This document shows, one piece after another, positions 1,249 through 62,802 of a stretch of DNA of 64,000 nt (positions are counted from its first letter, which is position 1; each line of letters opens with the position of its first letter). The notes beneath the pieces were generated by a model. The model was not told the DNA's origin. It saw only the letters and a program-made list of their open reading frames with translations, and searched no databases. The translations under genes were made by a program, and so were the position numbers. Source of the DNA: an uncultured archaeon (GTDB lineage Archaea > Iainarchaeota > Iainarchaeia > Iainarchaeales > JAAZKV01); NCBI GenBank assembly GCA_902385225.1, contig CABMEU010000029.1, positions 41,065-105,064 of the forward strand, read 5' to 3'.

Positions 1249-1322
1249 ATTGAGAGAAAAGATTATTGGGGTTAATATTGGTTTTGGTTTAGAGAAGTTC
1301 GATAACTATTTTGAGTTAGTCT

Positions 1323-2222
1323 CTATTCACTTTCTTTTCCTTTCTTCGCATCCGCTTTTTCAGCGAGTAATCGTATCCACTCGTGTATTACTGTTGTTCC
1401 GAGGTATTTTTTGAATGGTCCGGGCATGAAATTTACCTCAATTACCACCCATTTGTTTTTGTATTCCATGAGGTCAACCGCGCACATGTCCATTCCGAGT
1501 GTTTTCGCTGCGCCCTTTGCAATAGAAAGCATTTCGGGGGTTGGGTTTATGAGGTGCGCGCTTCCCCCGCGGGAAATGTTTGCTCTCCAATCTCCTTTTT
1601 TGCATTTTCTTTTTACCGCAACAACATAATCACCGATTACATAGCACCGAACATCAGAATCCTTTCCTTTGATAAATTTTTGGGTGGAGATAAATTCCTC
1701 AAATAGGTGCACTGCGTCAAGTATGCTCTCCATTTGCTCTTTTGAGTTAATTAGAACAACTCCTTTTCCGGCGAACCCAGAGATTAATTTCATTACAAAT
1801 GGGTATCCTGTCTCATCAATCGCATAATCAGCGTACCTTGGCGAGATAAAGAGCGTGCTCGTTACCCCAGGGATTGATTTTGTGGAGAGTTTTTGCGAAG
1901 TAAAGAATTTGTGGTTAGTTACTTGGTATGATTCAAGAGTCACAGGGCAGTAGGCGTTTGTGCTTTGTATTGCTTTCATTACCGCTTCTCCCAGCAAAAA
2001 ATCACGTGAAGAAATTCTTGGGTAAATTGCGTCATATTCAAGCAAATTTTTCCCCTTATAAAATAATCCCGCTCTCCCCTGCGAGGTTTGAATTTGTATC
2101 TTATCAATTGTGACAAAAAGCACTTTGCCAAACTTCTGCTTTGCTTCTTCAAGCATGGAATTAATTGTGGATTCTTTGTAAGTTTTTGAGCCAATTATTA
2201 GGAGGCTTTTTTGCGAGGTCAT
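1323..2222 (-). CDS. RimK-family ATP-grasp ligase (alpha-L-glutamate ligase-like)
   Basis: Contains WRANISRGGSAHLINP ... MCAVDLMEYKNKWVVIEVNFMPG, which is the typical RimK/LysX C-terminal ATP-grasp signature. Its start overlaps the upstream ligase's stop by 4 nt. Confidence 0.8.
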   Translation of the reverse strand: MTSQKSLLIIGSKTYKESTINSMLEEAKQKFGKVLFVTIDKIQIQTSQGRAGLFYKGKNLLEYDAIYPRISSRDFLLGEAVMKAIQSTNAYCPVTLESYQVTNHKFFTSQKLSTKSIPGVTSTLFISPRYADYAIDETGYPFVMKLISGFAGKGVVLINSKEQMESILDAVHLFEEFISTQKFIKGKDSDVRCYVIGDYVVAVKRKCKKGDWRANISRGGSAHLINPTPEMLSIAKGAAKTLGMDMCAVDLMEYKNKWVVIEVNFMPGPFKKYLGTTVIHEWIRLLAEKADAKKGKESE

Positions 2223-3136
2223 TTTAACCGCCCTCCAAGCGCTGTTTTCTCAATTAGTTTTTCGAGTCCAAAGAAACTAAATTTCGGTTTATTCTTGTGC
2301 CTGTTCGTTTTCGCTTTTTCAATTAAGAAACTCGCAGCCGTTTCCTCAAGGCTCTCTGAGCTAATCCTGTCAAACTCAGCCCAGGGAATCATCGGCTCGA
2401 TTTTCACTACTCTTCCTTTCGCAAGATCCACTCTCGCAATATCAAATCCGCATGCGTGCGCGGCGCTTATTGCGGTTTTGTGGTCCTCTTCGCTTAGTTT
2501 GTATGTCTCTCCCGCGGAGAGTTCAGGAACTATTTCATCCTTTTGCTTTCTCTTAACCGCGAAAACCTTTTTTCCAATTACCGCGCATGAAATCGCATCC
2601 CCTGGAATATATTCCCTTAGCATAAATCCGTCAGTTTCAGTTCTAATGCTTTTAATAAAGTGATTTAGTTCAGTGCTTGTTTCTACAACAATTTCCTGCT
2701 GGGCTTTTCTCCCGACAAAATACTTTGCGATTAAAGGATAAGAGATTCTTGTTGAAACTTTCTCAATGTTCTTAGCGGAGCCCGAGGTTAGTGTCTTTGG
2801 GGTGGGAATATCCTCGAGTGCTAAAGTAACAAATTGATACGGCTCGTTCATTGCATTATAATATGCCCCTTTTTTCGCGCTCACATAGCATTCCTGGTCA
2901 TGTAATTCCTCAAGTAATGGTTCAATAAATGGGGCGAGAGTTGCTCGTACTTGGATTATTACCGCATCATAGTAAGGGATTTTTTCCCCAAGTGATTTGA
3001 TTAGGGTTTCCTTTTGTTTGCTCACAAGGGTAATTTTTGATACTCGCAGGTACTGCGCATGCGCGCCCTTTTCCTTAAGCGCCGCAACAATAGGGTTAGC
3101 GACCCCTTTTTTCTCAGCAATAACAAGTATATCCAT
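2219..3136 (-). CDS. RimK-family ATP-grasp ligase, second paralog
   Basis: Pre-ATP-grasp plus ATP-grasp architecture. FDIARVDLAKGRVVKIEPMIPW resembles the RimK D..G..V.EVN core. The probable start is MDILVI (3136); the track ORF extends to 3154. It is translationally coupled to 1323-2222. Confidence 0.75.
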   Translation of the reverse strand: MDILVIAEKKGVANPIVAALKEKGAHAQYLRVSKITLVSKQKETLIKSLGEKIPYYDAVIIQVRATLAPFIEPLLEELHDQECYVSAKKGAYYNAMNEPYQFVTLALEDIPTPKTLTSGSAKNIEKVSTRISYPLIAKYFVGRKAQQEIVVETSTELNHFIKSIRTETDGFMLREYIPGDAISCAVIGKKVFAVKRKQKDEIVPELSAGETYKLSEEDHKTAISAAHACGFDIARVDLAKGRVVKIEPMIPWAEFDRISSESLEETAASFLIEKAKTNRHKNKPKFSFFGLEKLIEKTALGGRLK

Positions 3137-3255
3137 GTCCCCACTAAAGCGCATAACACATGCAAGAGCATAAAAGAGTTTCTTTTTTGAGGTTTGCCTG
3201 CTTTTTTAGTTCCAACAATTAACCTTAATAATGCGGATTTCCTTATCATGGCGCT

Positions 3256-3699
3256 GTGGTCTTCTTGGGTAAATCAAAGAAAGTAATTGGTCTTGTTGAG
3301 ATTGTGCATATTAGGGGCAAAAAAGGAATTGTAAAAAAGAGAGCTCTTTTTGATACGGGTGCGACAAGAACGAGTATTGATGTTAAGACCGCCGCAAAAG
3401 CCGGTATTGGTCCGATTGTTTCTAGTGTTAGGGTAAAGAGCGCTTCTTCTTCAAGAGGATATTTGCGCAGAGCGATTGCTGAAGCCGTGATTGTTGTTAA
3501 AGGGAAAAAGTTCAAGAAGGGAGTGAATATTGAGGACCGTGAAGGAATGCCTTATTCTGTATTAATTGGAAGAGATATTATTCACAACAACTTTTTGATT
3601 GATGTTTCAAGGACCCACACAAGCAACAAGGTGCGGGATTCAAAGGACAAGAGCGAGAGAAAGAGAATTACAGAAATGTGGGATAAGCATCAGCAGTAA
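3256..3699 (+). CDS. RimK-associated retropepsin-like aspartyl protease (COG4067/PF05618-like, the family often annotated as putative ATP-dependent zinc protease)
   Basis: ALFDTGATRTSIDV contains the DTGA aspartyl-protease motif. The C-terminal LIGRDIIHNNFLIDVS matches the LLGRnfL..f.VD ending of that family. It is divergently transcribed from the RimK pair. Confidence 0.7.
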   Translation: MVFLGKSKKVIGLVEIVHIRGKKGIVKKRALFDTGATRTSIDVKTAAKAGIGPIVSSVRVKSASSSRGYLRRAIAEAVIVVKGKKFKKGVNIEDREGMPYSVLIGRDIIHNNFLIDVSRTHTSNKVRDSKDKSERKRITEMWDKHQQ

Positions 3700-4853: not shown

Positions 4854-4996
4854 TTTTAACAGCTCTCTTTAGTTTTCTGCCTTATTTATTTCCTGATTGT
4901 TAAGGCAATTGCCCAAAAACCCCCTGATACTACATAATTTGGCTGGTTTTCCCAAACATTTATAAAGGAAAATGAGAGGAAATTTATCGTGGTATA

Positions 4997-5221
4997 ATGA
5001 AGAAGCTCTGCTCTGAATGCAAGGCCCGTTTCGAGGTTCCAATTGATGATATGGAAGAAGGAGATGCTATTCCCTGCCCTGAATGCAATTTAGAGTACAC
5101 AATTATAGCTGACAAGAAAGGTGTTTTGAAACTAATTGAAAGCAAGACGTTTGAGATGGAGGAAGAGGAAGAAGACTCCGAGGAAGATTCAGACGCTGAA
5201 GAAGATTACGATTCTGATTAA
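4997..5221 (+). CDS. LysW-like zinc-ribbon amino-group-carrier-type protein with an extended poly-acidic C-terminal tail
   Basis: CSECKARFEV...(13 residues)...IPCPECNLEYTII followed by GVLKL. This matches the LysW layout: CPECGAELRL, a 13-residue spacer, CEDCGAELEVV, then GLDPL. The C-terminal 25 residues are E/D-rich and end EEDYDSD, compare LysW's EDWGE. A TATA-like box (tttataaagg) ends about 29 nt upstream of the ATG. Confidence 0.5.
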   Translation: MKKLCSECKARFEVPIDDMEEGDAIPCPECNLEYTIIADKKGVLKLIESKTFEMEEEEEDSEEDSDAEEDYDSD

Positions 5222-5320
5222 GCAAAATCATCTCATTCTAATTGACTTAGTTCCCTCACTCCCATATTCAAATCAAATTCTCAGTGCCCCAAAAACCCTT
5301 AAATACTTCGCCAACTACGA

Positions 5321-18079: not shown

Positions 18080-18145
18080 AAACACGTTACTTTGGTTAAT
18101 CCTAACAGGTAATATTAAATACTTCTTTTTTCCTACTAGTCCCTG

Positions 18146-18871
18146 ATGAGCAAGAAGAAATCAGTTTCTGTTAAGAAAAAGAAGCGTTTCGCTGCCGAAA
18201 AGAAACTCTCAACAAAAGAGATGGGGTTTTTTCAGAGATTAAAGGATGTTTTGCCTGAGCAGCGCCCTGCGGCGAAAGAAACTGTGCGCGTGAAAACTTA
18301 CATTGTTGAAAAACCGGTTTATATTAACGCGGGAGAAAGAGGAAGGGTATCTCCTCCGCCGCAGAAATATGGGTTTGATGACGGAAAGAAATTTGATTCC
18401 AGAAAAAGCAGGTATGCGAAAAGAAGGGCGGAGAAAGAAATTGCTCCCGAAGATAATCCTGAGGAATTTAATGATGAGGGTCTCACCCAGCAGGATGAAT
18501 TGAGCGCGGGAGAGACTGAGGGAGAGGATGCGCTTGCCCAAGGTGATGAACAATTTGAAGAGGGGGCTGGCGCTGAGGGAGAAGCGCTTGAAGGAGAAGG
18601 GGAGTTTGATGATGGTGCTGAAGAGGGAGGGTCCGCAACTAGCTTAGATAATCCTCACCGAAGCAGGGTAATGTTTAACGGGATTTGGTGGAAGAGAGCA
18701 TTATTTTGGGGAATACTTGCTTGGCTAATAATTCTTGCTGGGGAAGTTGCTCTTCACGCGATTAATTTGGTTGATTTGAACTTGAACCGCCAATGGTGGG
18801 TGTTACTTGGAATAATTATTTTTATTTCTCTGATTTATCATGCTTTTTTTGCCGACAAGCACTTAATTTAA
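18146..18871 (+). CDS. Tail-anchored protein with an acidic low-complexity region
   Basis: Basic N-terminus, a central E/G/A/D-rich low-complexity stretch, and two C-terminal transmembrane helices. Confidence 0.35.
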   Translation: MSKKKSVSVKKKKRFAAEKKLSTKEMGFFQRLKDVLPEQRPAAKETVRVKTYIVEKPVYINAGERGRVSPPPQKYGFDDGKKFDSRKSRYAKRRAEKEIAPEDNPEEFNDEGLTQQDELSAGETEGEDALAQGDEQFEEGAGAEGEALEGEGEFDDGAEEGGSATSLDNPHRSRVMFNGIWWKRALFWGILAWLIILAGEVALHAINLVDLNLNRQWWVLLGIIIFISLIYHAFFADKHLI

Positions 18872-19255: not shown

Positions 19256-19282
19256 AAATCTGCTTTTACTTAGCTAATACTC

Positions 19283-19531
19283 TTATTTGACTAATTTCTT
19301 CTTCTTGAGTTCTGATTCCATTTTCGGTCTGTCAAAGCCGATTATCACAGCGCCGTCAATATCAATTACTGGGACTCCCATCTGTCCGCTCTTATCAATC
19401 ATTTCTCTTGCTCTGTCCTGATTGATTCCTACATTAACATCCTCAAATTCCACTTTCTTCTCCTTAAGCCAGTTCTTTGCCATCACGCAGTAAGGACAAG
19501 TGCTTGTTGAATATACAATTACTTTAGACAT
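19283..19531 (-). CDS. Glutaredoxin/NrdH-like small redoxin
   Basis: VIVYSTSTCPYC CPYC active site within a thioredoxin fold of about 80 aa. Confidence 0.75.
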   Translation of the reverse strand: MSKVIVYSTSTCPYCVMAKNWLKEKKVEFEDVNVGINQDRAREMIDKSGQMGVPVIDIDGAVIIGFDRPKMESELKKKKLVK

Positions 19532-19691
19532 ACTTCCACCCCGTTACTTGAGTTAGGACTTACTATTAGCGTGTTTTTTTAAACCTTCTGGTGGAGTCAG
19601 TTCATCCTTGATTGGGCGGCATAAATTTTGCCGGTATATTTTACGCTTACAATATTAAATCTATTTATCGCTTATTTGTAAGTGATAACTA

Positions 19692-22990: not shown

Positions 22991-24070
22991 ATGCAGAAAA
23001 TAATTGGTTTGCTTGATTTGGATTATTTTTACGCGCAGTGTGAAATCTTAAGAAAGCCGGAGATTAGGGGAAAACCTGTGATTATTGTAATGCCTTCGCT
23101 TCGCGAAAACTCGGGGGCAATAGCGACCGCTAATTATGAAGCTCGGGCGCAAAAGATTCGCTCAGGAATGCCTCTTTCACTTGCAAAGAAACTTGCGAGT
23201 CCAGATAGTGTTTTCATTAACGCTGATAAGCCGTATTATGAGGAATTATCTCAGAAGGTATTTGAGATAGTTGATTTTTTCTGCGAGAAAGTGGAGCAGG
23301 TCTCAATTGATGAGGCATATTTTGAGCTCACTAATGCCTCAGACTTTGAGAAGGCGGAGGAGAATGCGAAGAAAATAAAGCAGAGAATTAAGTCAGAGCT
23401 TGGGCTTACTTGTTCTGTCGGGGTTGGTCCGAATAAATTAATCGCAAAAATGGCGGCTTCGGCAAAAAAGCCCGACGGGTTTTATTCAGTTCGACCAGAG
23501 CAAGTGGATTCATTTATTTCAAAGCAGAAAATATCCTCTCTGTTTGGGGTGGGTCCAAAAACAGAGGAAATTTTTAAGAAGCACGGTGTTCAGCTCGTTA
23601 GCGATGCGCGCAAGTATTCTAAAAAGGATTTTGTTGAATGGTTTGGGGAAGGAAACGGGGCAAAGTTTTACGAATATGTTTTTGGGAATGATTTGCGGGA
23701 GATTGAGGCGAATAGGGAGAAGCAGCAGCTCTCAAGGATGATAACAATGAAGCAGGACTCGCGTGATTTTGAATTCATCCGCCAGAACATTGATTTTCTT
23801 GCGGAGATGCTTTACAAAAAACTTGTTGAATTAAAAAAGAAATTCAAAACGGTTTCATTAATTATTGTCACGGAGCGGATGGACACAGTCACAAAATCCA
23901 GGACAAAAGAGCAGCCCATCGTTTCTTTGGAGGAGTTAAAAGAAATGGAATACACTTTACTTAAGGACTATTTGAATGAAGCCTTCTCAAATGTTCGAAG
24001 GGTGGGTGTTCGTGTCTCAAATTTTGATGAGAACACGGGTTTGCAGAGAAAGTTGCTTGAGTTTAAGTGA
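22991..24070 (+). CDS. dinB: Y-family DNA polymerase IV (Dbh/Dpo4-like)
   Basis: LDLDYFYAQCE N-terminal catalytic motif, SIDEAYFEL, and an HhH region GVGPNKLIAKMA. Confidence 0.85.
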   Translation: MQKIIGLLDLDYFYAQCEILRKPEIRGKPVIIVMPSLRENSGAIATANYEARAQKIRSGMPLSLAKKLASPDSVFINADKPYYEELSQKVFEIVDFFCEKVEQVSIDEAYFELTNASDFEKAEENAKKIKQRIKSELGLTCSVGVGPNKLIAKMAASAKKPDGFYSVRPEQVDSFISKQKISSLFGVGPKTEEIFKKHGVQLVSDARKYSKKDFVEWFGEGNGAKFYEYVFGNDLREIEANREKQQLSRMITMKQDSRDFEFIRQNIDFLAEMLYKKLVELKKKFKTVSLIIVTERMDTVTKSRTKEQPIVSLEELKEMEYTLLKDYLNEAFSNVRRVGVRVSNFDENTGLQRKLLEFK

Positions 24071-34518: not shown

Positions 34519-34585
34519 AAAACCACTTCAGATGAATTAAGTAAAAAAGGTTATTAAAGAAACTACTACGCTTGTTTGTAATTAA

Positions 34586-34882
34586 TTACTTTTTGTAGTG
34601 GTGCGCAAGCCACTGTTTTTTGAAAAAAGGAAGCGTGAGGGTTGAGAGCAAGAATCCAACCGAAGGAACTATTGCGTTAAGCCAGGGGTTTGGAATATTT
34701 ATTACATTTAAGTAAATCCCAATCGCAAGGTAAGTGAATAGAACAAGCAGTCCTCTGCGGAAGTAACTTACTTCCCACGCTTTATCAGATTCAACGCGCG
34801 AGTTTCTCTCCTCAATTTTCTTTATTCTATTCTCTAGCTGTGTGATTGTAGCCATAAAAAAGCCGACTTTACTTGATATCAA
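34586..34882 (-). CDS. Small two-TM membrane protein
   Basis: 98 aa with two hydrophobic helices. Confidence 0.3.
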   Translation of the reverse strand: MISSKVGFFMATITQLENRIKKIEERNSRVESDKAWEVSYFRRGLLVLFTYLAIGIYLNVINIPNPWLNAIVPSVGFLLSTLTLPFFKKQWLAHHYKK

Positions 34883-35165
34883 TTAGTATTTCTTTGATTC
34901 TTGGTCTTTGTCTATCGCATGTCGCGCATGCATCAAGAGCATCAAGGCAAAGAACTTTACCGGCTTTTACTCTCTCAAGTTTCGTGAGTTCAGCGTCTTC
35001 TGCGCGCAGAGCAGTGAAAGCGGCTTTTAATGTTTCAACAGCTTTTTTTGTTGAAATAACAGCCATTTCTTTTTGTGAGTCGCTTGGTCTGAGATTTCGG
35101 TATGTGTGGCAAAGCATGCAATTTCTCTTTGCTGAGTCAAAATAAGCTGATAGTGTGGTTTTCAT
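34869..35165 (-). CDS. Small Cys-containing hypothetical protein
   Basis: CMLCH and CATC cysteine pairs. Function unknown. Confidence 0.3.
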   Translation of the reverse strand: MKTTLSAYFDSAKRNCMLCHTYRNLRPSDSQKEMAVISTKKAVETLKAAFTALRAEDAELTKLERVKAGKVLCLDALDACATCDRQRPRIKEILIDIK

Positions 35166-35296
35166 GACAAATACTAATACATAAAAGAATAAAAAGCATG
35201 GGGGGAGTGAAAAAATGCCTCTTAACCCAAGAAAGTGAAAAAAATAAAAAGTACCGGCGAATTACCGCCGGCACTCGAATTAGTTTTATTATTGCA

Positions 35297-41979: not shown

Positions 41980-43332
41980 TTGATGAGCGAGAAGGGAAGG
42001 GTAAAGGAATACGAGGGTTATTTGGATTCTAATTACAAGCCGAACAGGGATGATTTGGTTTGCGAGTATTTTTTGGAACCCGCAAAAGGAATTACGCTTG
42101 AGAGTGCCGCGCAGAGAATCGCCTCAGAGTCAAGCATCGGAACTTGGACTGATATTGGAACTCTTCCTAAGAGAATGTTTGATGAACTCTCGCCAAGAGT
42201 TTTCTTCGTTGATAAAAAGAATAGTATTGTTCGAATCGCTTATTCAAAAAAACTCTTTGAGCCGAATAATATTTCACAGATCTTAAGCTCCGTTGCGGGA
42301 AATATTTTCGGAATGAGTGATGTGAAGAATCTAAAATTATTAGATATTGATTTCCCCGAGTCTTTTGTTGACAAGTATATGGGTCCGCATTATGGAATCG
42401 ACGGGGTAAGAAAGCTAATGAAAGTAAAATACAGGCCATTCGTTGGAACAATTGTAAAACCAAAACTTGGTCTTGATGAGAAGAAGCACGCGCAGGTGGC
42501 GTATGAGGCGTGGAAGGGCGGGTGCGATTATGTTAAGGATGATGAGAATCTCACCTCAATGAGCTTCAATAACTTTTACAAAAGAATTAATGTGACTCTT
42601 AGGGCGAGAGAAAAAGCGGAGCGGGAAACCGGCGAGCGAAAAGCGTATTTGCCAAATGTAACCGCGCCTTATGATGAAATGTTAAGAAGAGCAAGGCATG
42701 TTGTCCGCATGGGCGGAGAATTTGTGATGGTTGATGTGCTCACGGTTGGATTCTCCGGTATACAGGCGCTTCGTGACCACGATTTGAATGTGGTCTACCA
42801 TGGTCACCGCGCAATGCACGGCGCGTTTACCCGAAATCCTCATCATGGAATCTCAATGCTCGTGATAGCAAAACTCTGTCGTTTAATTGGAATTGACCAA
42901 TTGCATGTCGGCGGAGTTGTTGGGAAAATGTATGAAGGAAAAGAAGAGGTTACGGCTGTTGGGGAGGAAATTGAACAGCAAGTGGTAAGCAAAGATATTT
43001 TTAGGCACAGGCTTCAGCAGGACTGGTGTGACTTAAAGCCAATCCTTGCGGTTTGCTCTGGGGGGCTTCATCCTGGAAAAGTTCAGCCATTAATTCACGC
43101 AATGGGGAGAGATATAATTATCCAAGCCGGCGGAGGAATCCACGGCCACCCAAGAGGAACACTCGCGGGCGCAATGGCGATGAGGCAGGCGGTTGATGCG
43201 GAGATGGAAGCAAAGAGTCCTATTGAGTACGCAAAAACCCACTCGGAGCTTCGAGAAGCCTTGCAAAAATGGCACGGAATGAATTTTTACGAAAGGCATC
43301 ATGAGAGTTTGAGAAAAGGCGGGAAGAGATAG
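41980..43332 (+). CDS. rbcL: RuBisCO large subunit, form III (archaeal type)
   Basis: GGCDYVKDDENLTS, the carbamylated-Lys/KDDE active-site region. GLHPG and the GGGIHGHP C-terminal motif. 450 aa. No small-subunit gene nearby. Confidence 0.9.
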   Translation: MMSEKGRVKEYEGYLDSNYKPNRDDLVCEYFLEPAKGITLESAAQRIASESSIGTWTDIGTLPKRMFDELSPRVFFVDKKNSIVRIAYSKKLFEPNNISQILSSVAGNIFGMSDVKNLKLLDIDFPESFVDKYMGPHYGIDGVRKLMKVKYRPFVGTIVKPKLGLDEKKHAQVAYEAWKGGCDYVKDDENLTSMSFNNFYKRINVTLRAREKAERETGERKAYLPNVTAPYDEMLRRARHVVRMGGEFVMVDVLTVGFSGIQALRDHDLNVVYHGHRAMHGAFTRNPHHGISMLVIAKLCRLIGIDQLHVGGVVGKMYEGKEEVTAVGEEIEQQVVSKDIFRHRLQQDWCDLKPILAVCSGGLHPGKVQPLIHAMGRDIIIQAGGGIHGHPRGTLAGAMAMRQAVDAEMEAKSPIEYAKTHSELREALQKWHGMNFYERHHESLRKGGKR

Positions 43333-44020: not shown

Positions 44021-44036
44021 TCTCTCAGTTTTCTTT

Positions 44037-44071
44037 GTGCGAGGAGGCAGAAATTTTGCCCTCCTTTGCAC
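44037..44071 (+). terminator. GC-rich hairpin immediately after the rubrerythrin stop
   Basis: gtgc-gaggagg...cctcct-ttgcac: a 6-bp aggagg/cctcct stem plus an outer 4-bp gtgc/gcac stem. It starts 17 nt after the taa stop. Confidence 0.35.
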
Positions 44072-44654
44072 TTAATTGTTTTTAGTGGCATCACCACTCA
44101 TTAGGCATTAACACCCACTTCTTATTTGAAATCACTATAAGTTGGGCGATATCGATCACTAGTTTGTTATGTTAGTTGTTGTTTTGAAATATTTGGTGCG
44201 CAAACTTTCTCCAAAACCCTCAAAACCGCTGCTTTTCTTAATGTATAATTAGGCTTATTTTGTGTTTAATTTGGGATTTAAACCATTTCGCCCTTTTTGC
44301 ATATATTTAAACAATTCGTTCTTCGACATAACAAAAATATGCCTTCTAAGGGGGGTGGAGGCAAAGTCGTCAAAACAAGGCTGATAAAAGCTCAGAACTA
44401 TCAAAATAAGCTATTTTAACACTTTTCACTAGTAAAATTCCTGTTTTTTTACGTCATGTTGGTTATATTTGGGTTTAAAGCGTGTTTAACGTACTTTGCA
44501 TAGTTCCACAATCAACGAAGTGAGTGAAATAAGCCTTATTTGGGCTTCTTTTTGTGTTTAAGGCGTTATAATCCTATACATAAAAGCAAAGGTTTATAAG
44601 TAAGGTGTGAGGCAATATAAGCAATTAAATTTTAGCCTTTTAAGGCAGGGTGAT

Positions 44655-47541: not shown

Positions 47542-47560
47542 CTCGCGGCATGGGGCAAAA

Positions 47561-47956
47561 TTATTTTCTGCGTAATCTTCTCGCCAAGTTCGCTCTTGGT
47601 AAAGTCTTTGGTTTATTTGCCCGCATTTTTCGCAGTGCATCTAATCTGAGTTGTTGGGTTTCAACAAAATCGTTTTTTTCAAGTATTAATCTGTGCACCT
47701 CGTTTGCAAGCCTGCGGACTTTTAAACTATTGAATGCCTCTGTTGTTTCTGAATCTTTCCTCAGTTCATCTAACCAATTAATTGGATATTTGTTTCTCTT
47801 TTCCCCATCAATATACTTTGAAGCGAGGTTTGGGTCGCTTGCGGAAAGCAGTATGCTTAGCGCTGCGCCAATTGCTTTCTCTCTTGCTCTTATTCCAGCA
47901 GCATAAGCTCTTCTTGTCAAAGGCGGTACAGACTCGCCGATAAATTGTTTAGCCAT
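47561..47956 (-). CDS. Hypothetical basic protein
   Basis: 131 aa, R/K-rich, no motif. Confidence 0.3.
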   Translation of the reverse strand: MAKQFIGESVPPLTRRAYAAGIRAREKAIGAALSILLSASDPNLASKYIDGEKRNKYPINWLDELRKDSETTEAFNSLKVRRLANEVHRLILEKNDFVETQQLRLDALRKMRANKPKTLPRANLARRLRRK

Positions 47957-48393
47957 AAATAAATTACTTTGATCCAGTATTAAAGACTTTTTAATAATTT
48001 AAGTCGCAAAACGAAGATAATAATGGAGAATAAAGCGAGCAATTAACACAAGGGGGAGGGTAATGCAAGCAAACCGGACAAGCAACAAGTTGCTCATCCG
48101 ATCGCTTAGAGAGTTATGTTTTTGGAGATTAGAGTAGGCTCACCATAAGCTACTCAATCTAATTTTTCCGCGTATTACTATCTTTGACATAACTTATATT
48201 TATACCTTCCTATAAAATCTAATACATAACTAATTGCTTTTTTTGCCACTAAACTTGGTTTATTAGCAAGCAGGATGCATTTAACCACAAGTAAGTTGGG
48301 GGTTGATTTAAGTAAAGAATTGGTCAAATATTTATCACTTTGCAACTCAATAAAAAGCGTAATTTTAAGTTTTGAAGTGGTATTTGTAGGTAA

Positions 48394-53014: not shown

Positions 53015-53917
53015 TTAGTTTAATTTGGTTCTGTAGTCCAGCATGCCGCATGCTGCGTCAATATCGGAGCCAAGAAGGTCTCTGATTGTAGTCATTATTC
53101 CCTTGGAATTCATGAGTTTCATAATTTCTGCGTATTTCTTGTCTGGCGGTGACGAGAATGCTTTTCCAATGTTTTCAGAGTATTTTGTGAGTTTAACTTC
53201 TGCATCAAATTTTTTTGCAAGGCTGATTAGTTTCTTAATGTGCTTTTTGGAATAATTGTTTTTCCCGCTTGGAAAGTTTAACAGCATATAATTTATCTTA
53301 AGTTTTTTTCCAAAGAAGTCCGCTAGTTCCTTGAATTTTGGCAAAATTTCTTCTATTTTGTATTTTTTGCCCAGATTTGGAATTAGCATCGCGCGTTCTT
53401 TGTCATATGGGCTGTGGAGCGATAATTGTATTCTGAATTCTACTTCGGGCATATTTTTCTTGTTTTTTAGAACCATTTCTTTGTATGGTTTAATCAAATT
53501 CAAGTTTCCAGCCGAGCTAATCCTAAAGACAATTCTGCGGAATCTGCTCTTTTTTCTTTTGAATGAAAGGAATCCGTTAATGCAGTTCTTAAGATTGTAG
53601 CTGGCTTCTCCCATGCCTTCAATGAGGATAAATAAGTCCTCGGGTTTTTTATCAAGAATCAGTTTTTTCATCGCCAAAATTCCTGAGTTTATTTGCTCGG
53701 TTATTTCATTTTTTGTTAAATTCCTGACAAACGGCGCGTCTCCTGTGGCGCAGAATGCGCATTTCTCAATGCAACCAACTTGTGATGAAACACAGAGATT
53801 TATTGAATTCACTTTGGCATCGTAGAATGAAACAGTGTAAAAGTGTTTGCCGTGTTTGTCCTCGAATGTTATCTTCTTCAATGGATCCGTTTTTGAATTT
53901 ATTATAATTTCTTTCAT
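53015..53917 (-). CDS. RlmN/Cfr-family radical SAM RNA methyltransferase-like enzyme
   Basis: SSQVGCIEKCAFCATGD matches the RlmN SSQVGCxxxCxFCxTG signature. At 300 aa it is shorter than bacterial RlmN. Confidence 0.7.
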   Translation of the reverse strand: MKEIIINSKTDPLKKITFEDKHGKHFYTVSFYDAKVNSINLCVSSQVGCIEKCAFCATGDAPFVRNLTKNEITEQINSGILAMKKLILDKKPEDLFILIEGMGEASYNLKNCINGFLSFKRKKSRFRRIVFRISSAGNLNLIKPYKEMVLKNKKNMPEVEFRIQLSLHSPYDKERAMLIPNLGKKYKIEEILPKFKELADFFGKKLKINYMLLNFPSGKNNYSKKHIKKLISLAKKFDAEVKLTKYSENIGKAFSSPPDKKYAEIMKLMNSKGIMTTIRDLLGSDIDAACGMLDYRTKLN

Positions 53918-53989
53918 AAATATTAATTTTGTTTGGGGCTTTTTAGCAGCCCCACCGCACTGACACTGAAATTATAATTAAAACCATTC

Positions 53990-55546
53990 TTATACCTTTT
54001 TTTTGTGCTTGATTCTCACTCCTTTTTTCATATACACTAGTCTTTCTGTCAGTCTTTTCTCAATGCCTATTTCTTTCAGCGGGAGCTGCGATAAACCCTG
54101 TATTCTTGAGTGCTTGTTAAATTTATTATAATTCTTTATGGCGAGAGTGATCTTGGCTTTTGGCAAAGTGTAGTGGCCAAGGCGTATTAACTCAAGAAGG
54201 TCACGCCACTTTATGCCTGAATTAATATTTTTTGAATATTGGTCGACTATGCTATAATCTGATTTAAGGTACTTTGACTTAACTTCTTCTTTTGTTGATT
54301 TTATAAGCGAAACTAATTCTTTTGGCATGCAGTCTAATACATCATAATTTACCCTGCCTTCTTTTAGGTAATCCTGAGTTACCCGAATCGAGTAATATAA
54401 CTTTAAACGGTCTTCTTCAAACAGCGATGAACTTGCAAAATCGCGCAGACTAATGGCTTTCATTCGGAGCATTGATTTTGGGTCAACCTCAAGAATTATT
54501 TTCTCCCGGTATTTCGCTCCTTTTTCAATAAATGAAAGCCTGAGGGGGTCGCTAAAAGTCGAATCGAGTATTTTCTCATAACTGTCCTCATACAAATTAA
54601 ATAAACCGTCCAATGATTGGTTTTGCCAGGTGGTAATATTCCCATTATAATAAACGCTCCAGTCGAGCCCCTTTGAGCCGTTTGTGTTGAAAACAACTGA
54701 AGGAAAATAATCTTCTGATTCTTTTAGGTCTTTGTCAAAAACATTCGTTGCTTTTTGGCAGTCTTTTTTTGAGTTTAAATTAATTCTCAGATTGCAAAAG
54801 AATACTTTGGCGAGTCCGACAACAATTTCTAGTCCCGAAGGAAGAGTAAGCGTGATTTTTTTTGGGATTACTTTAACTAATAATTTGTTATCGGAAGCTC
54901 TTTTGTGCGGATCGCCTTCCATAATTTTCACGGAAGGGTAGTGTAAAAGTAATTTAGTCAGGGTTTTATCGCCAAAAAATGAGTGCAGCTGCAGTTTGAG
55001 GGTGTCGGATTTGGCGTAGCGCTGATTGAATATATCGATTAGATTTCTGGCAGGTTCTAAACCCAAGTTTATTGAGTGGTCCGCGCTAAGGCTGAGGCGG
55101 ATGACAACTTTTGTGGGGGTTTTTCTTTTTTTTATTGTGTCTTCAATGCAGTCCAGATATGCAGTTGCGCTTTTTTTTGTCATCGCCCAAATTCCGCTTG
55201 TGACGAGGACTATGTGCGGCGTATTAATTTTCTCGATGCAAGTGAGCACTGCTTTTTTCATGTCCATTGGCTCTCCGCCGCCTGAGATGTGGAGATAGCC
55301 AACATTTGCTTTATTCGCAAATTCAACAAACTTCATGATGCCTGCGTCTGAGAACTGGTCTTTTTCCCTTTGTGGTCCCCTTGCCGGCTTTGACTTGAAA
55401 AAACAAAACGGACATGCTACGCGGCAGTATCTTGTGAAGAATACGCTGATAATTGATTTTCCTAAAAATTCTTTGCAGTCATAGCGAATCAGTTTTTGTT
55501 TTAAGAATTCTCTTCGGTATTTCTCCGGGGTATTAAAAATATTCAT
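53990..55546 (-). CDS. Radical SAM enzyme of unknown specificity, 518 aa, non-SPASM C-terminal domain
   Basis: CRVACPFC (CX3CX2C) near the N-terminus, and ISGGGEPMD. The roughly 300-aa C-terminal extension has no Cys cluster. The start ATG overlaps the stop of the downstream kinase as ATGA. Confidence 0.7.
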   Translation of the reverse strand: MNIFNTPEKYRREFLKQKLIRYDCKEFLGKSIISVFFTRYCRVACPFCFFKSKPARGPQREKDQFSDAGIMKFVEFANKANVGYLHISGGGEPMDMKKAVLTCIEKINTPHIVLVTSGIWAMTKKSATAYLDCIEDTIKKRKTPTKVVIRLSLSADHSINLGLEPARNLIDIFNQRYAKSDTLKLQLHSFFGDKTLTKLLLHYPSVKIMEGDPHKRASDNKLLVKVIPKKITLTLPSGLEIVVGLAKVFFCNLRINLNSKKDCQKATNVFDKDLKESEDYFPSVVFNTNGSKGLDWSVYYNGNITTWQNQSLDGLFNLYEDSYEKILDSTFSDPLRLSFIEKGAKYREKIILEVDPKSMLRMKAISLRDFASSSLFEEDRLKLYYSIRVTQDYLKEGRVNYDVLDCMPKELVSLIKSTKEEVKSKYLKSDYSIVDQYSKNINSGIKWRDLLELIRLGHYTLPKAKITLAIKNYNKFNKHSRIQGLSQLPLKEIGIEKRLTERLVYMKKGVRIKHKKKV

Positions 55547-56364
55547 TGTGTTTGTCTCCTTAGTATTTGTTTTAGGCGCCGGTTTGTTAATTGGTGAACC
55601 CTCATTTTGTCAAGTTGTATGCAGTTTCTGCCAAAATACATTGTGGGGATTTTAAAAAGCAAAGTAATCTCCGAGTGCTGGTCGCCAAAGCTATTGTTTT
55701 TTGCATAATCTAACAGAATCTTTCTCTCATTTGGAAAAGAACTTACATTGTTTTTTCCTCTGGTGCCGGGTGCAATTATTCTCTTTACTGTCAGGTAAAT
55801 CTCTCTCATTGACCGGTTCTCAGTTCTGATAATCTTATAGGGACCGCTGCAGATTTTTGGCAGCTCGTGCAAGTAAAAATCTCTTACGTGCTTGAGGAAT
55901 CTCTTTGATGTCCAAGGGAATTCCATTCTTTTTGAGCTCTTCTTTCGTCTTGCGATGCTTGATTTTGGAGAAGTATCAAAAATTAATACTAATTCAAACG
56001 GGTAGCGCGCCAAGTCCCTTTCGTAATCTCTTTTTACTTTTGAATATGTTTTGCTGTTATTGCATTTATCAAAAGCATATGAAAAAGCCAAATTACAGTA
56101 AAACGACCTGTCTAATAATAAATTCTCGGTTGACGGGCAGTATTTTTGAATAATTCTCATTCGCTGAACCCATTTCTTGTGGAATAATCTGCTCTGGGCC
56201 GAATTTGACATTCCTTTAAGCGATTCGCCGGGGTCAGTATGCATTTCCGGCAAAATATTATACTTGCCAAAATATGATTTTGCTAATTGGAATAATATGG
56301 TGGATTTGCCTGTTCCTGGCAGTCCTTCAAAAACAATCATAAAAACACCTTTGGTTTTTCGCAA
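55543..56364 (-). CDS. Deoxynucleoside-kinase/thymidylate-kinase-like P-loop kinase
   Basis: FEGLPGTGKSTIL Walker A. LLLDRSFYCNLAFSYAF resembles the dNK ERS(xx)S..F motif. Translationally coupled to the 518-aa radical SAM gene. Confidence 0.6.
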   Translation of the reverse strand: MRKTKGVFMIVFEGLPGTGKSTILFQLAKSYFGKYNILPEMHTDPGESLKGMSNSAQSRLFHKKWVQRMRIIQKYCPSTENLLLDRSFYCNLAFSYAFDKCNNSKTYSKVKRDYERDLARYPFELVLIFDTSPKSSIARRKKSSKRMEFPWTSKRFLKHVRDFYLHELPKICSGPYKIIRTENRSMREIYLTVKRIIAPGTRGKNNVSSFPNERKILLDYAKNNSFGDQHSEITLLFKIPTMYFGRNCIQLDKMRVHQLTNRRLKQILRRQTQ

Positions 56365-56594
56365 TATTTTTTTGAGTTCAGACCTGAATTAGCTAATGAA
56401 TTATTGTCTATACGCTAAAGGCATTCTTTGGCAACCAGGCTAAGCACTAACTTACGTATACTATGAATATCTTTGGAGTTTTAAATATTTTTGGTTCATG
56501 TTTTTGGAAATGCGGAGCTATTTTTGTTTCTCTTCTTGGTGTTGTATTTATTTGCCAAGTAGTTCTTTTATACTTCTTTTTTCATACTAAGCTG

Positions 56595-56693
56595 CATGCT
56601 TGCCGATAATAATTTTGTCCTGGATGCAAATGAGTCTTGGGGCGGCTCATACGGCCCGGTTTTTAACGGCGCCGCGGGATATTTTACTGGATG
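56595..56693 (+). CDS. 32-codon mini-ORF duplicating the promoter/start and the 3' end of the pilin-like gene at 61462-62802
   Basis: Peptide MLADNNFVLDANESWGGSYGPVFNGAAGYFTG. Nucleotides 56566-56597 are 30/32 identical to 61433-61464 (TATA-like element through the ATG). Nucleotides 56631-56678 are 48/48 identical to 62740-62787 (C-terminal ESWGGSYGPVFNGAA). It is in frame and ends at tga. Confidence 0.35.
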
Positions 56694-56769
56694 ATAATGC
56701 GAATTTGTGTTTTTGGTCAATAATGAAATTATTTTAAGCGTATTGTGGCGGATAATGGTTGTTGGTTTA

Positions 56770-57276
56770 ATGGATTTTTTAGAGCTCGCGAAGAAAAGGT
56801 ATAGTGTGCGTGGATACAAGCCGCAAGAAGTTGAAAAAGAAAAACTTGATTATGTTCTTGAGGCTTTTCGAATGGCTCCGACCGCATGCAACTTGCAGCC
56901 GTTTAAATTATTTGTGATTAAAACCAAGGGAAAAGAAAAAGCTCTTGGCGAGATTTGCGGTTCGTGGAAGTGGTTTACTGAGGCTCCGCTGCTGCTTTGC
57001 GTTTGTGCGCTTCCCAAAAAAGCGTGGTCGCGCGCTGATGGAAAGAATTATTCTGACGTGGATTGCGCAATCGCGTTTGATCACTTGGTGCTCGCAGCTA
57101 CAGAGAAGGGTCTTGGCACCTGCTGGGTGGCAAAATTTAATGTTGCTAAGGCAAAAGAATTGCTTGGAATTAAAAATGATTTTGAGCCGATTGCTTTTAC
57201 TCCGCTTGGATATCCTAAAGTTGAGGCGGGAAGGAAAATAAGAAAACCCGTGGAAGAGTTAGTTGAGTTTCTCTGA
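56770..57276 (+). CDS. Nitroreductase family protein
   Basis: MDFLELAKKRYSVRGYKPQEV and PTACNLQPFKLFVIK. The start is trimmed to MDFLEL. Confidence 0.8.
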   Translation: MDFLELAKKRYSVRGYKPQEVEKEKLDYVLEAFRMAPTACNLQPFKLFVIKTKGKEKALGEICGSWKWFTEAPLLLCVCALPKKAWSRADGKNYSDVDCAIAFDHLVLAATEKGLGTCWVAKFNVAKAKELLGIKNDFEPIAFTPLGYPKVEAGRKIRKPVEELVEFL

Positions 57277-59538: not shown

Positions 59539-60540
59539 TTATATTTTAGGAATGTAAAATGTGCATTTCTCGCACACTTTTGGAATAGTTCCATTTTCAA
59601 ATCCAGCCAAGATAGAATCATACTTTTCTGAGTTAAATGCTTCCTTCAGAGTCATCTTTAGAATATTTCCAACAATTAATTCATCATCAAAAGTTTTCAA
59701 CACTCTGCATCCGCACGCCCTTATGTTTCCGTTCGGGAGAATTGAGAATCCAAATAAGTTCTGGCAGGGGTATTTCTTAATTTTTGGCGCGCCGCTCATA
59801 GTTTGAAATCCAATAAGGTCCTTCTTTGAAATAGACCCTCCCCAGTTATCATATGCCGTCAAATAATCCATTTTGAATAGGCCCTTCTGGTAATATTCCC
59901 AAAAAGGGGTTTTTTTCATATCTTTTATGATTTTATTAAATTCCCTCATGGGTCTAAACGAAAGCTGGATATTGATTTTCTTATTTCTTTTTATTAATTC
60001 CAAAATGGCATCTAATTTCTGCCTGCACTGCTCCTCTGATACTTGAAACACTTTGGATTCATACAGGGGGATTACATCAGCCACATCAATTAGTATGGTC
60101 TCAAGTTTGGAACTGAGGATTTTGTCAATATTATTTTTAATTAAAAATCCGTTTGTGTAAAAAGAGCAGGTCATTTTGTTTTCGTAAATATAATCTATTT
60201 TCTCAAATAATCCATTGTCAAGCAGCGGTTCTCCAATCATGGGTGTTAAGCCGATGGAAGTAATTCCCAGCTCTTTAAATTCATCAACAGCTTTTTTGAA
60301 TATTTCAAAAGGCATGATTCCTCTTTCGCTCTCAATGTGCCGATTAGCGCAGAATGTGCAGTTCGCGTTGCAATAGGTGGATGGGAATATTCCTCCGCCA
60401 AGGAGCTCTTTTTTGTATTTCTTTCCTGTTGCCAAAGCGGTTATGCTTTTGCAGTCCTCAATGATAAACTTATTTTTATAATATATTTTCTTCGCATTGC
60501 AAAAATTATATTTTAAAAAGTCGGATATTTCTTTATTCAT
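59539..60540 (-). CDS. Radical SAM enzyme with a Cys-rich, SPASM/twitch-like C-terminal region
   Basis: YCNANCTFCANR (CX3CX2C) and a C-terminal CQNLFGFSILPNGNIRACGC...CEKC. Confidence 0.7.
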   Translation of the reverse strand: MNKEISDFLKYNFCNAKKIYYKNKFIIEDCKSITALATGKKYKKELLGGGIFPSTYCNANCTFCANRHIESERGIMPFEIFKKAVDEFKELGITSIGLTPMIGEPLLDNGLFEKIDYIYENKMTCSFYTNGFLIKNNIDKILSSKLETILIDVADVIPLYESKVFQVSEEQCRQKLDAILELIKRNKKINIQLSFRPMREFNKIIKDMKKTPFWEYYQKGLFKMDYLTAYDNWGGSISKKDLIGFQTMSGAPKIKKYPCQNLFGFSILPNGNIRACGCRVLKTFDDELIVGNILKMTLKEAFNSEKYDSILAGFENGTIPKVCEKCTFYIPKI

Positions 60541-61332: not shown

Positions 61333-61461
61333 ACGCGCCGTCCAAGAAGTGCCGGTGGTTAATGCAAGTTCTCCTAAGAATAAGTCCTGTTCTTGGCGTG
61401 ATAAACTCTCAAAATAGTTTTGCGGGTAGATATTTATACTGCTTTTTTCATACTAAACTGC

Positions 61462-62802
61462 ATGAATACATTTAGTTTTCGGGCGCAGGGTACCGCCGAG
61501 TACTTGGTGATAATAGGGGTAATCGTTGTTATTTCCCTTGCGGTAATTGGGCTGTTAAACTCCCAATCAACTTCTATTGAAAGTGTTTCAGGAAACTCTT
61601 CTCAAGTAAAGCAAAAAATCGGGGTTTATGGGGTAAGTATTGTTGATGCTATCGGGGGGCTGGATGAGAACGGGCTGCTCGTTTTGAGTAACACAAGCGG
61701 AGAGAATTTCACTGTGACAAATATTAATGTGGATGGGGTGGATCATGAATATTCTAATTTGGTTTTCTCTGGAGAATCAAAGCCATTCAAATTGCAGAGC
61801 ATTCTTGCGTGCGAGGGCGCCAGCAGAAATTATTCCATAAAAATTTATTATACGAGCTCCACCGGACTTGAGAAAGTGGCTGATTTTGATAAAATATCTA
61901 TTGACTGTGCCTTAGCTGTGACTGGAAATACAGTTTTTGTTGAAGAGGGTTTGGATTTTACTCCCCCTTCAATTAATTTGTATTCTCCTGCGGATAATAA
62001 TTCAATATCCTCCGCGGACAGCAATGTTGAATTTATTTTCAGTTCCGACCAGGATACGAACGCATGCTATTTGTATGTTCAGGACGAGGGGGTTTGGAAT
62101 ATTGCGGATCAAAATCTCTCAACGGTTCTTGCGGACAGTAATTACTATATGGACGCGAACATTGCATATTTTGGGGAAGGAGATCATTATTGGGATGTGA
62201 ATTGCACTGATACTAATGGTCTTGTGGGAACGGCGGCTGATAGAAACATTAATTATACCGCGCCGGTAGTACAGGGAGCTTCTTTTACAAATCTTCTAAC
62301 AAATCCAGGAATGGAAACTGGCACTTACACCGGGTGGACGCCGAGCATAACTGCGCAAGTTGCGGGGGCATGCACTTGGAACGGGCTTGTTCTTTGCATT
62401 GACACTGGTCCGCTGTATGAAGGAAATTATAGTGTTCGTTTTAGCTATAATCCCGCAACGCTAAGCCAGGAAATTGATTTGGTTTCAAAGGGTTATGCGG
62501 CAAATTATCTTGACACCTCTCCTGATGTGAATATCGTGGATCATGTTATTGGATATTTTAACACTTCAGATTATTACCGGCTTAAAGTGGAATTAAGAAA
62601 CTCAAGCCATGGTGTGATAACAAGTTACAACACGGGGATTCTGACTTCCTCAGGAAGCTGGGCTACAATAAATTATTTATTCAGCGGTTATGCGTCCGGA
62701 CTGAGATACATTTATTTTGAGAGATATGGTGATGATGTTGAGTCTTGGGGCGGCTCATACGGCCCGGTTTTTAACGGCGCCGCGGTTTATTTTACTGAGT
62801 GA
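61462..62802 (+). CDS. Secreted surface protein with a class-III (archaeal type IV pilin-like) signal peptide, rich in N-glycosylation sequons
   Basis: MNTFSFRAQGTAEYLVIIGVIVVISLAVIGLL fits the Class_III signal-peptide pattern (QxxAEYL plus a hydrophobic stretch). The mature domain of about 410 aa carries many N-x-S/T sites (NTSG, NFT, NYS, NNS, NLS, NCT, NYT, NSS and others). The track ORF starts 42 nt upstream at 61420. Confidence 0.65.
   Translation: MNTFSFRAQGTAEYLVIIGVIVVISLAVIGLLNSQSTSIESVSGNSSQVKQKIGVYGVSIVDAIGGLDENGLLVLSNTSGENFTVTNINVDGVDHEYSNLVFSGESKPFKLQSILACEGASRNYSIKIYYTSSTGLEKVADFDKISIDCALAVTGNTVFVEEGLDFTPPSINLYSPADNNSISSADSNVEFIFSSDQDTNACYLYVQDEGVWNIADQNLSTVLADSNYYMDANIAYFGEGDHYWDVNCTDTNGLVGTAADRNINYTAPVVQGASFTNLLTNPGMETGTYTGWTPSITAQVAGACTWNGLVLCIDTGPLYEGNYSVRFSYNPATLSQEIDLVSKGYAANYLDTSPDVNIVDHVIGYFNTSDYYRLKVELRNSSHGVITSYNTGILTSSGSWATINYLFSGYASGLRYIYFERYGDDVESWGGSYGPVFNGAAVYFTE

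Follow-up and report, generated by a model that had tools for sequence, protein, structure and literature searches.

A 32-codon mini-gene in an uncultured archaeon, probably the collapsed remnant of a second lectin-pilin gene

We have characterized a mini-gene of an uncultured archaeon that consists of three collinear, in-frame pieces of a copy of a nearby gene for a 446-aa protein. It occupies positions 56567 to 56694 of the 64-kb stretch of DNA that was analyzed (the window). Our preferred explanation, which we hold to be probable though well short of certain, is that it is the remnant of a second paralog of the 446-aa gene, reduced by two in-frame deletions and homogenized at its ends against the intact copy.

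Results

Anatomy of the mini-gene

The following features of the window are referred to throughout.

56567-56598, + strand: block 1, core promoter through start codon, a copy of 61433-61464 (30/32 identical)
56567-56572, + strand: TATA box TTTATA of the mini-gene, 29 nt before the ATG
56571-56589, + strand: promoter-proximal motif TACTNCTTTTTTCNTACTA, between TATA box and ATG (one of three mismatch-free copies in the window)
56596-56694, + strand: mini-ORF, 32 codons and a stop, translation MLADNNFVLDANESWGGSYGPVFNGAAGYFTG
56599-56631, + strand: block 2, with its counterpart in the Ig-like module (BLOSUM62 score 41, spliced-chain alignment, tblastn)
56631-56694, + strand: block 3, last 20 codons of the FBA domain and the stop (60/64 against 62739-62802)
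56704-56714, + strand: T-rich run TTTGTGTTTTT, 10 nt past the mini-ORF stop, a candidate oligo-T terminator (read from the sequence)
61433-61464, + strand: core promoter and ATG of the intact gene, counterpart of block 1
61462-62802, + strand: intact 446-aa gene, VVB75809.1 (Pfam and PDB matches)
62128-62160, + strand: counterpart of block 2, codons 223-233 of the intact gene (peptide match, spliced chain)
62739-62802, + strand: counterpart of block 3, codons 427-446 and stop of the intact gene (alignment)
18120-18138, + strand: third copy of the motif TACTNCTTTTTTCNTACTA, upstream of the ORF at 18146-18871 (motif scan)

Blocks 1 and 3 are close copies of the two ends of the intact gene. The 32 nt of block 1 differ from their counterpart only at 56575 and 56591 (E 8e-8 by blastn-short within the window), and the 24-nt promoter pattern TTTATACTNCTTTTTTCATACTAA has just two sites in the window, one at the mini-gene and one at the intact gene, with none expected from 100 shuffles. 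Block 3 agrees at 60 of 64 positions, stop codon included (by BLAST, 57/59 aligned positions, E 6.5e-24 within the window), and its longest perfect run is 47 nt (56631-56677, identical to 62739-62785). The two pairs are the two outstanding direct-repeat families (D7 for block 1, D1 for block 3) of the 50-64 kb region. The copies of the C-terminal block lie 6,108 nt apart and the start codons 4,866 nt apart, and 18 of the last 20 residues of the mini-ORF are the same as the C-terminus of the 446-aa protein. The mini-ORF ends in ESWGGSYGPVFNGAAGYFTG, with final residues GYFTG against VYFTE in the parent, such that peptides of the two products are distinguishable.

A preliminary description of this DNA had reported a mini-gene at 56566-56693 that combined the promoter and start of a gene about 6 kb downstream with the codons for its C-terminus. 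The feature itself is confirmed, both similarities being far beyond chance and readily reproduced by alignment at the E values given above; its coordinates are one base too low. The count of 30/32 for the promoter block was obtained again, with the mini-gene side at 56567-56598, and the 32-codon ORF translates in frame as described. Near-identity at the 3' end likewise holds, although the perfect match of 48/48 is a run of 47 nt and the match of the last 20 residues is incomplete. The distance of 6 kb is correct for the C-terminal copies and too large for the start codons.

Between the two ends lie 11 codons (nucleotides CTTGCCGATAATAATTTTGTCCTGGATGCAAAT), whose homology to the intact gene had been missed in that description. 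They encode LADNNFVLDAN, homologous to LADSNYYMDAN at codons 223-233 of the intact gene. The BLOSUM62 score of this peptide match, 41, was not equaled once in 20,000 shuffled peptides or in 20,000 random ones of matched composition; residues 223-233 were the best match within the 446-aa protein, and tblastn returned the same pairing. Orthologues carry the same motif at this position (SADTNYFFDAN and SADTNISLDTN). Nucleotide identity is 21/33 (64%), with 9, 8 and 4 matches and 2, 3 and 7 mismatches at codon positions 1, 2 and 3, a sample too small (not significant) to indicate past purifying selection.

A spliced-chain alignment was performed in which large gaps were allowed only in the large gene. 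At every jump penalty of at least 8, the result was the promoter and ATG, then 56599-56630 aligned to 62128-62159, then the C-terminal block; the three blocks are collinear and have the same reading frame in the mini-gene and the intact gene. A four-block model, in which 56599-56614 is paired with 61987-62002 (14/16) and 56615-56630 with 62474-62489 (11/16), arose only at the lowest jump penalty and is held to be the less likely of the two. The three-block model is favored because of the 11-residue match at the protein level, and the four-block model is also less parsimonious.

The parent gene

The 446-aa product is identical to VVB75809.1, named "F-box associated region [uncultured archaeon]" and derived from a 134,907-bp contig. 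Its predicted layout starts with a pilin-like N-terminal module that bears a candidate class III signal peptide; a single Ig-like module follows, and an FBA domain, of the Fbs1 sugar-binding type, forms the C-terminus. The FBA domain (PF04300) was matched at residues 277-442 with an E value of 4.4e-18 and 66.1 bits, against a gathering cut-off of 32.4, and spans profile positions 9-173 of 175. Sugar-binding domains of FBXO44, FBXO2 and FBXO6 in the PDB were matched at E values of 2.5e-14 to 1e-12 (FBXO44, 2.5e-14; FBXO2, 6e-13). In the PDB alignment, ESWGGSYGP of the parent is paired with HYWAGWYGP of FBXO44, a region that contributes to the sugar-binding pocket in the Fbs1 structure. By these matches, the C-terminal motif common to the mini-gene and the parent is one of the structural elements that make up the FBA lectin fold. 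The class III signal peptide profile (PF04021) scored 17.6 bits (E 0.0038) at residues 7-29, the correct place, though below its cut-off of 23.7, and the N-terminal motif FRAQGTAEYLVIIGVIVVISL is common to the relatives P0002-P0006. A structure predicted for the 446-aa protein from a four-sequence alignment had a mean pLDDT of 36.8 and was not used; domain identity was taken from the Pfam and PDB sequence matches. Altogether, domain content predicts a modular surface protein of pilin-like type, with a lectin at its tip that would bind sugars. No gene for a prepilin peptidase or a pilus ATPase was seen among the proteins of the window. The window belongs to an archaeal chromosome and encodes TFB, Hef, FEN1, FtsZ, form III RuBisCO and aminoacyl-tRNA synthetases.

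Only three close relatives of the parent were found in 5.8 billion proteins; the count of Ig-like modules separating N-terminal module from FBA domain in them is 0, 1 or 2. Two distant relatives, P0005 and P0006, keep the N-terminal module and have different C-terminal modules. In-frame gain and loss of modules is normal among the parent's relatives. The FBA domain is otherwise known from eukaryotic F-box proteins, and nothing on archaeal FBA-domain pilins or comparable mini-genes was found in the literature. Type IV pilins of modular build that bear a grafted module for adhesion or a lectin have been described, such as PilB of Streptococcus sanguinis (PMC8179133), as have archaeal SPIII proteins with sugar-binding domains (bioRxiv 10.64898/2026.04.22.720090). 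The parent resembles such pilins in its candidate class III signal peptide and hydrophobic helix, behind which come Ig-like and lectin modules, and its relatives P0005 and P0006 resemble them in swapping the C-terminal module. It differs from them in that its lectin is of the FBA/Fbs1 type, and the mini-gene differs in that it has no pilin features.

Divergence, flanks and genomic context

The three blocks have diverged from the intact gene to unequal degrees. Mismatches number 2/32 in block 1, 12/33 in block 2 and 4/64 in block 3, and block 2 differs from both ends taken together (6/96) with a Fisher p value of 8e-5; the ends are 94% identical to the intact gene, compared with 64% for the middle island. 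This inequality calls for later gene conversion at the ends, or else to a mixed origin of the pieces. The perfect run in block 3 covers 15 whole codons with every third position identical, for which the probability is near 3e-7 at the third-position identity of block 2 (4/11). Because orthologues vary at many synonymous sites across this stretch, its identity is attributed to recent exchange rather than to constraint at the nucleotide level. The four differences in block 3 form two dinucleotide changes, which produce V442G and E446G. The family alignment of four members shows no variation at V442, where the mini-gene has glycine, in a sample of only 31 codons.

Outside the TATA box and the stop codon, similarity between the flanks of the mini-gene and those of the intact gene was not significant, which suits an old duplication rather than a fresh one. 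Composition does not break anywhere in the 56.7-62.8 kb region, and thus a signature of a genomic island or of horizontal transfer is absent. The spacer that holds the mini-gene, between a kinase-like gene and a nitroreductase gene, measures 405 nt and is one of the few long ones in the window, where the median is 62 nt. The mini-gene occurs once in the 64 kb and is the sole gene fragment in any spacer of the window.

Promoter and transcript

In the window as a whole, TATA-like hexamers show a sharp peak at -30 to -28 relative to candidate ATGs, and 22 genes have this geometry. In archaea the TATA box sits about 26 nt ahead of the site where transcription starts, so this spacing indicates leaderless mRNAs. 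In both the intact gene and the mini-ORF, TTTATA begins exactly at -29 from the ATG, which is the modal geometry of the window. The mini-gene is probably still transcribed and, as a leaderless mRNA, its ORF probably translated, because the promoter is intact and has the standard leaderless geometry.

The motif TACTNCTTTTTTCNTACTA has three mismatch-free copies in the window (at 18120, 56571 and 61437), compared with 0.49 expected even when three mismatches are allowed. It is absent from the other 20 promoters listed with a TATA box at -29 and hence is not a general promoter feature; it has the look of a regulatory motif common to the three genes. The mini-gene copy has the majority base (two of the three genes) at each of its two variable positions. 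The third copy stands before an ORF (18146-18871) for a 241-aa membrane-anchored protein with an acidic disordered region, for which no family match was found.

Downstream, a nitroreductase gene (56770-57276) follows in the same orientation, 76 nt from the mini-ORF, and a TATA-like element, TTATTTTAA, is located at 56729-56737 upstream of its start. No hairpin terminator was found between the mini-ORF and the nitroreductase gene. A run of five T's is a typical archaeal termination signal, and the T-rich run at 56704-56714 could end the mini-gene transcript. RNA structure at the mini-gene gave no signal (fold z-score -0.3). An RNA element was also considered and rejected: Rfam had no match in 56200-56900, and the only match above the gathering score in the whole window was a tRNA-Glu.

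Searches for relatives and other copies

The mini-ORF had no match in Pfam, and its exact sequence is absent from a collection of 15 billion proteins. A search of 1.84 billion representatives gave no true relatives, only two spurious matches to repeat proteins. A scan of GTDB genomes with the family alignment recovered a single locus, on the P0002 contig, and a scan of JGI metagenomes with a degenerate form of the C-terminal motif recovered only the P0002 and P0004 contigs. Neither of these two related loci has a mini-gene within 10 kb, and neither is syntenic with the locus described here. Further carriers of the motif and further mini-proteins, for which the preliminary description had allowed, thus came to nothing real among the 1.84 billion representatives and, in the JGI scan, to P0002 and P0004 alone. 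No second full-length paralog from this organism was found among public proteins, and the protein of the kinase-like neighbor had no homologue except itself in the collections searched. The depositors seem to have left the mini-ORF unannotated, as the protein accessions run without a slot for it.

Discussion

The preliminary description offered three explanations for the mini-gene: the scar of an in-frame deletion in a second paralog, a recombination cassette, or an expressed peptide akin to a RiPP precursor. A remnant is the best supported of the three, with the amendment that a single deletion gives way to two (about 222 and 193 codons) on either side of a diverged 11-codon island. We propose that a second copy of the gene at 61462-62802 lost approximately codons 2-222, and with them the signal peptide, the pilin-like module and the front part of the Ig-like module, and that another deletion took approximately codons 234-426, nearly the whole lectin domain. 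This would leave the core promoter with the ATG, a stretch of 11 codons from the Ig-like module, and the final 20 codons with the stop. After the copies had diverged, the ends may have swapped sequence with the intact gene through short-tract gene conversion limited to the remaining homology. The order of these events is conjectural, the second paralog itself is hypothetical, and conversion at the ends is inferred. The mini-gene lacks the pilin-like module, the candidate class III signal peptide with its helix (residues 7-29), and residues 277-426 of the FBA domain. With neither a signal peptide nor any complete domain, the product can serve neither as pilin nor as lectin, and most likely it would have no function of its own.

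Origin as a collapsed paralog accounts for the collinear in-frame blocks, their unequal divergence, V442G, the missing parts, the want of any matching small protein, the uniqueness of the mini-gene and the size of its spacer, and in-frame module loss is normal among the parent's relatives. Degraded pseudogenes homogenized by gene conversion offer a close parallel: the pieces are collinear with the parent, essential domains are lost, an invariant residue is changed and a perfect tract lies beside a diverged one. The mini-gene departs from such pseudogenes in that both deletions are in frame, in that the core promoter and start codon are fully kept and look functional, and in that it sits in a compact genome with a median spacer of 62 nt. 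These departures are also what speaks against the remnant. Two in-frame deletions have a chance of about 1 in 9. The limits are tidy, with the left deletion starting right after the ATG and similarity running from TATA box to stop codon, an outcome also to be expected if an expressed mini-gene had been under selection. An intact promoter with the majority bases of the motif is unexpected for decaying DNA in a compact genome.

The same observations would be explained by a functional micro-gene, a reading that we regard as unlikely. A 32-aa peptide would be made from a leaderless mRNA under the same promoter and operator as the lectin-pilin gene and would have a cytoplasmic role. It might regulate, for instance, or it might engage the C-terminal strand and the Trp loop of the FBA domain, as a decoy or in the manner of a chaperone. 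The intact promoter with its TATA box at -29, the proximal motif common to the intact gene and a third gene, the in-frame junctions, the limits at TATA box, ATG and stop codon, and the retention of ESWGGSYGP, which aligns with HYWAGWYGP of FBXO44, would all fit. Against this, a homologous small protein was found neither in the collections nor beside the related genes, V442G strikes a family-invariant residue, 20 residues taken out of a beta-sandwich are unlikely to fold or bind alone, and the depositors seem not to have annotated the ORF. We are somewhat more doubtful that the promoter has been kept for the nitroreductase gene, with the mini-ORF merely a translated leader. The mini-gene is directly upstream in the same orientation, there is no hairpin terminator in between, and only the promoter and a short ORF are preserved; however, a T5 run (56710-56714) follows the ORF, the nitroreductase gene has its separate TATA-like element, and the near-identity of block 3 to the intact gene would be left unexplained. 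Such a role would be compatible with origin as a remnant. Equally doubtful are the bolder prospects that the mini-gene is a deliberately retained, co-regulated micro-gene, read as a leaderless mRNA off the operator-bearing promoter that it has in common with the lectin-pilin gene and a third gene, for a membrane protein, and that its 32-aa product (Trp loop and last FBA strand) modulates production, folding or glycan recognition of the full-length lectin, or that the repeat pair forms a pop-out switch for the 6-kb segment of glycan-modification and lectin genes.

That the mini-gene serves as a recombination substrate for surface variation, its direct repeats (32 nt; 47-64 nt) exchanging with the surface-protein gene or popping out a 4.9-6.1 kb segment, is in our view improbable. 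Near-perfect repeats do flank genes for the nitroreductase, a Wzx flippase, a methyltransferase, a radical SAM enzyme and FkbM, such that the excised segment would carry the genes for glycan modification and perhaps also the lectin gene; past exchange between the two sites is implied by the perfect 47-nt run, and recombination between the repeats could in principle delete the 4.9-6.1 kb that separates them. Pop-out would be irreversible, however, and no site-specific recombinase, transposase or reverse transcriptase is encoded in the 64 kb. Like the silent pilS cassettes that serve pilE in Neisseria, the mini-gene is a partial copy of a pilin-like gene near the expressed one and has signs of exchange. 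Silent cassettes (pilE/pilS, vlsE) are promoterless, multiple and without 5' ends, whereas the mini-gene is single, has its own promoter and ATG, and offers almost no variable content (11 non-identical codons); no recombination-initiating element was identified for it in the window. The cassette proposed earlier is on these grounds set aside. A diversity-generating retroelement, which would likewise place a 3'-end repeat of a ligand-binding surface-protein gene a few kb away, was considered and rejected: there is no RVT domain among the approximately 64 proteins of the window, the repeat is only 64 nt, and the four mismatches of block 3 (G/T, A/T, G/A, A/G) are not adenine-specific. Misassembly of the metagenome or a collapsed strain variant is very improbable. 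The contig of this uncultured archaeon was assembled from a metagenome, and assemblers can go wrong at repeats, but the unique 33-nt island and unique flanks would need two false joins at points without shared k-mers. We give the least credence of all to the mini-ORF as a RiPP precursor modified by the nearby radical SAM/SPASM enzyme and methyltransferases, the third of the earlier proposals. What it shares with RiPP loci is a short ORF less than 3 kb from a radical SAM/SPASM gene, and the adjacent nitroreductase-fold protein has a very weak match to the SagB family (E 1.8e-4, below the cut-off). In contrast to RiPP loci, the radical SAM/SPASM gene (59539-60540) is on the opposite strand, 2.8 kb off with two genes between, and it runs with a methyltransferase and a Wzx-type flippase, next door to an FkbM methyltransferase, neighbors that point to glycan modification. 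The enzyme is 333 aa long, too short to accommodate a peptide-recognition domain given that its radical SAM domain begins at residue 53, and it falls outside the maturase families: its best NCBIfam model, a tungsten-cofactor maturase, scores 67 bits against a cut-off of 380, and the models for peptide maturases reach 20-35 bits where 400-850 are required. Cys is absent from the peptide, which belongs to no conserved precursor family, and its sequence is wholly explained as pieces of the lectin gene, its motif being an element of the FBA fold.

Conclusions

On its own the mini-gene is of little consequence; it is most likely a decaying remnant rather than a precursor of a peptide antibiotic or a variation cassette. 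Its value is as a well-resolved example of how a surface-protein paralog may decay in a compact archaeal genome, with in-frame loss of modules, a surviving promoter and patchy gene conversion. For annotation, the short ORF beside the radical SAM/SPASM gene at this locus should not be named a RiPP precursor. Two by-products of the analysis are more interesting, namely a rare archaeal family of FBA-tipped pilin-like proteins and a promoter motif that the intact gene shares with two other transcription units. Should the remnant turn out to be both expressed and conserved, it would exemplify the birth of a micro-protein from a decaying gene.

Differences between the mini-gene and the lectin-pilin gene

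When the C-terminal block of the mini-gene (56631-56694) is compared with that of the intact lectin-pilin gene (62739-62802), all four differences fall in adjacent pairs, at 56678-56679 (GA in the mini-gene vs. TT in the intact gene) and at 56690-56691 (GA vs. AG). Both of the adjacent-pair changes lead to the codon GGA (Gly).

The lectin-pilin gene and its relatives

In the intact gene (61462-62802, + strand), a putative archaeal class-III-signal-peptide/pilin-like module is fused with an FBA sugar-binding domain of the Fbs1/FBXO2 type. Such FBA domains are elsewhere typically found in F-box proteins of eukaryotes. Among 5.8 billion proteins there are just three close relatives, which carry 0, 1 or 2 Ig-like modules. 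Genes of two relatives lie at these positions on their contigs:

L001, 10001-11635: lectin-pilin relative
L004, 9534-10556: lectin-pilin relative, encoding P0004

P0004 is the shortest member of the family, and a reverse-transcriptase (RVT_1) gene lies ~7.5 kb upstream of its gene, at L004 704-1987. Two more distant relatives, P0005 and P0006, keep the N-terminal module and have C-terminal modules other than those of the lectin-pilin protein.

Genes and spacers of the window

Beside the mini-gene, positions 53015-56364 (- strand) are occupied by a head-to-tail run of three genes:

first gene, - strand: RlmN/Cfr-like radical SAM methyltransferase, 300 aa
second gene, - strand: radical SAM protein without a family-level match, 518 aa
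third gene, - strand: dTMP-kinase-like P-loop protein, 273 aa

The second and third genes overlap by 4 nt; the product of the third had no homologue but itself among 5.8 billion proteins. The spacer holding the mini-gene (405 nt) is exceeded in length by five others, the window median being 62 nt:

47542-48393: longer spacer
34519-35296: longer spacer
44021-44606: longer spacer
4854-5320: longer spacer
19256-19691: longer spacer

These five contained zero fragments of any window gene and zero Rfam matches.

Elsewhere, in the region 109-3699, a MATCAP homologue (PF08014, E 5e-46; MATCAP is a microtubule-associated tyrosine carboxypeptidase) adjoins a pair of ATP-grasp ligases of the RimK type and one small gene resembling a Zn/Asp protease; the group could be a cassette that adds and removes C-terminal amino acids of proteins. 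A Y-family polymerase gene is present at 22991-24070. A RuBisCO large-subunit gene (41980-43332, + strand; PF00016, E 7e-88), presumed form III given the archaeal context, lies close to rubrerythrin and FtsZ genes, an arrangement that fits a DPANN-like nucleotide-salvage metabolism.

Promoter motif and probable leaderless transcription

Three transcription units have a copy of the 19-nt motif TACTNCTTTTTTCNTACTA downstream of the TATA box and before the ATG:

18120-18138, + strand: ahead of the gene for a 241-aa acidic membrane protein
56571-56589, + strand: ahead of the mini-ORF
61437-61455, + strand: ahead of the lectin-pilin gene

The motif was not found in 20 other TATA(-29) promoters of the window; it could serve as an operator, or be a promoter module that has been propagated. 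Window-wide, at least 22 genes have TATA-like hexamers peaking at -30 to -28 relative to their ATG starts (examples at 5330, 9881, 13253, 38763, 41207, 45943, 58679 and 59417). Judged from sequence, this geometry implies that leaderless mRNAs would be the rule in this archaeon.
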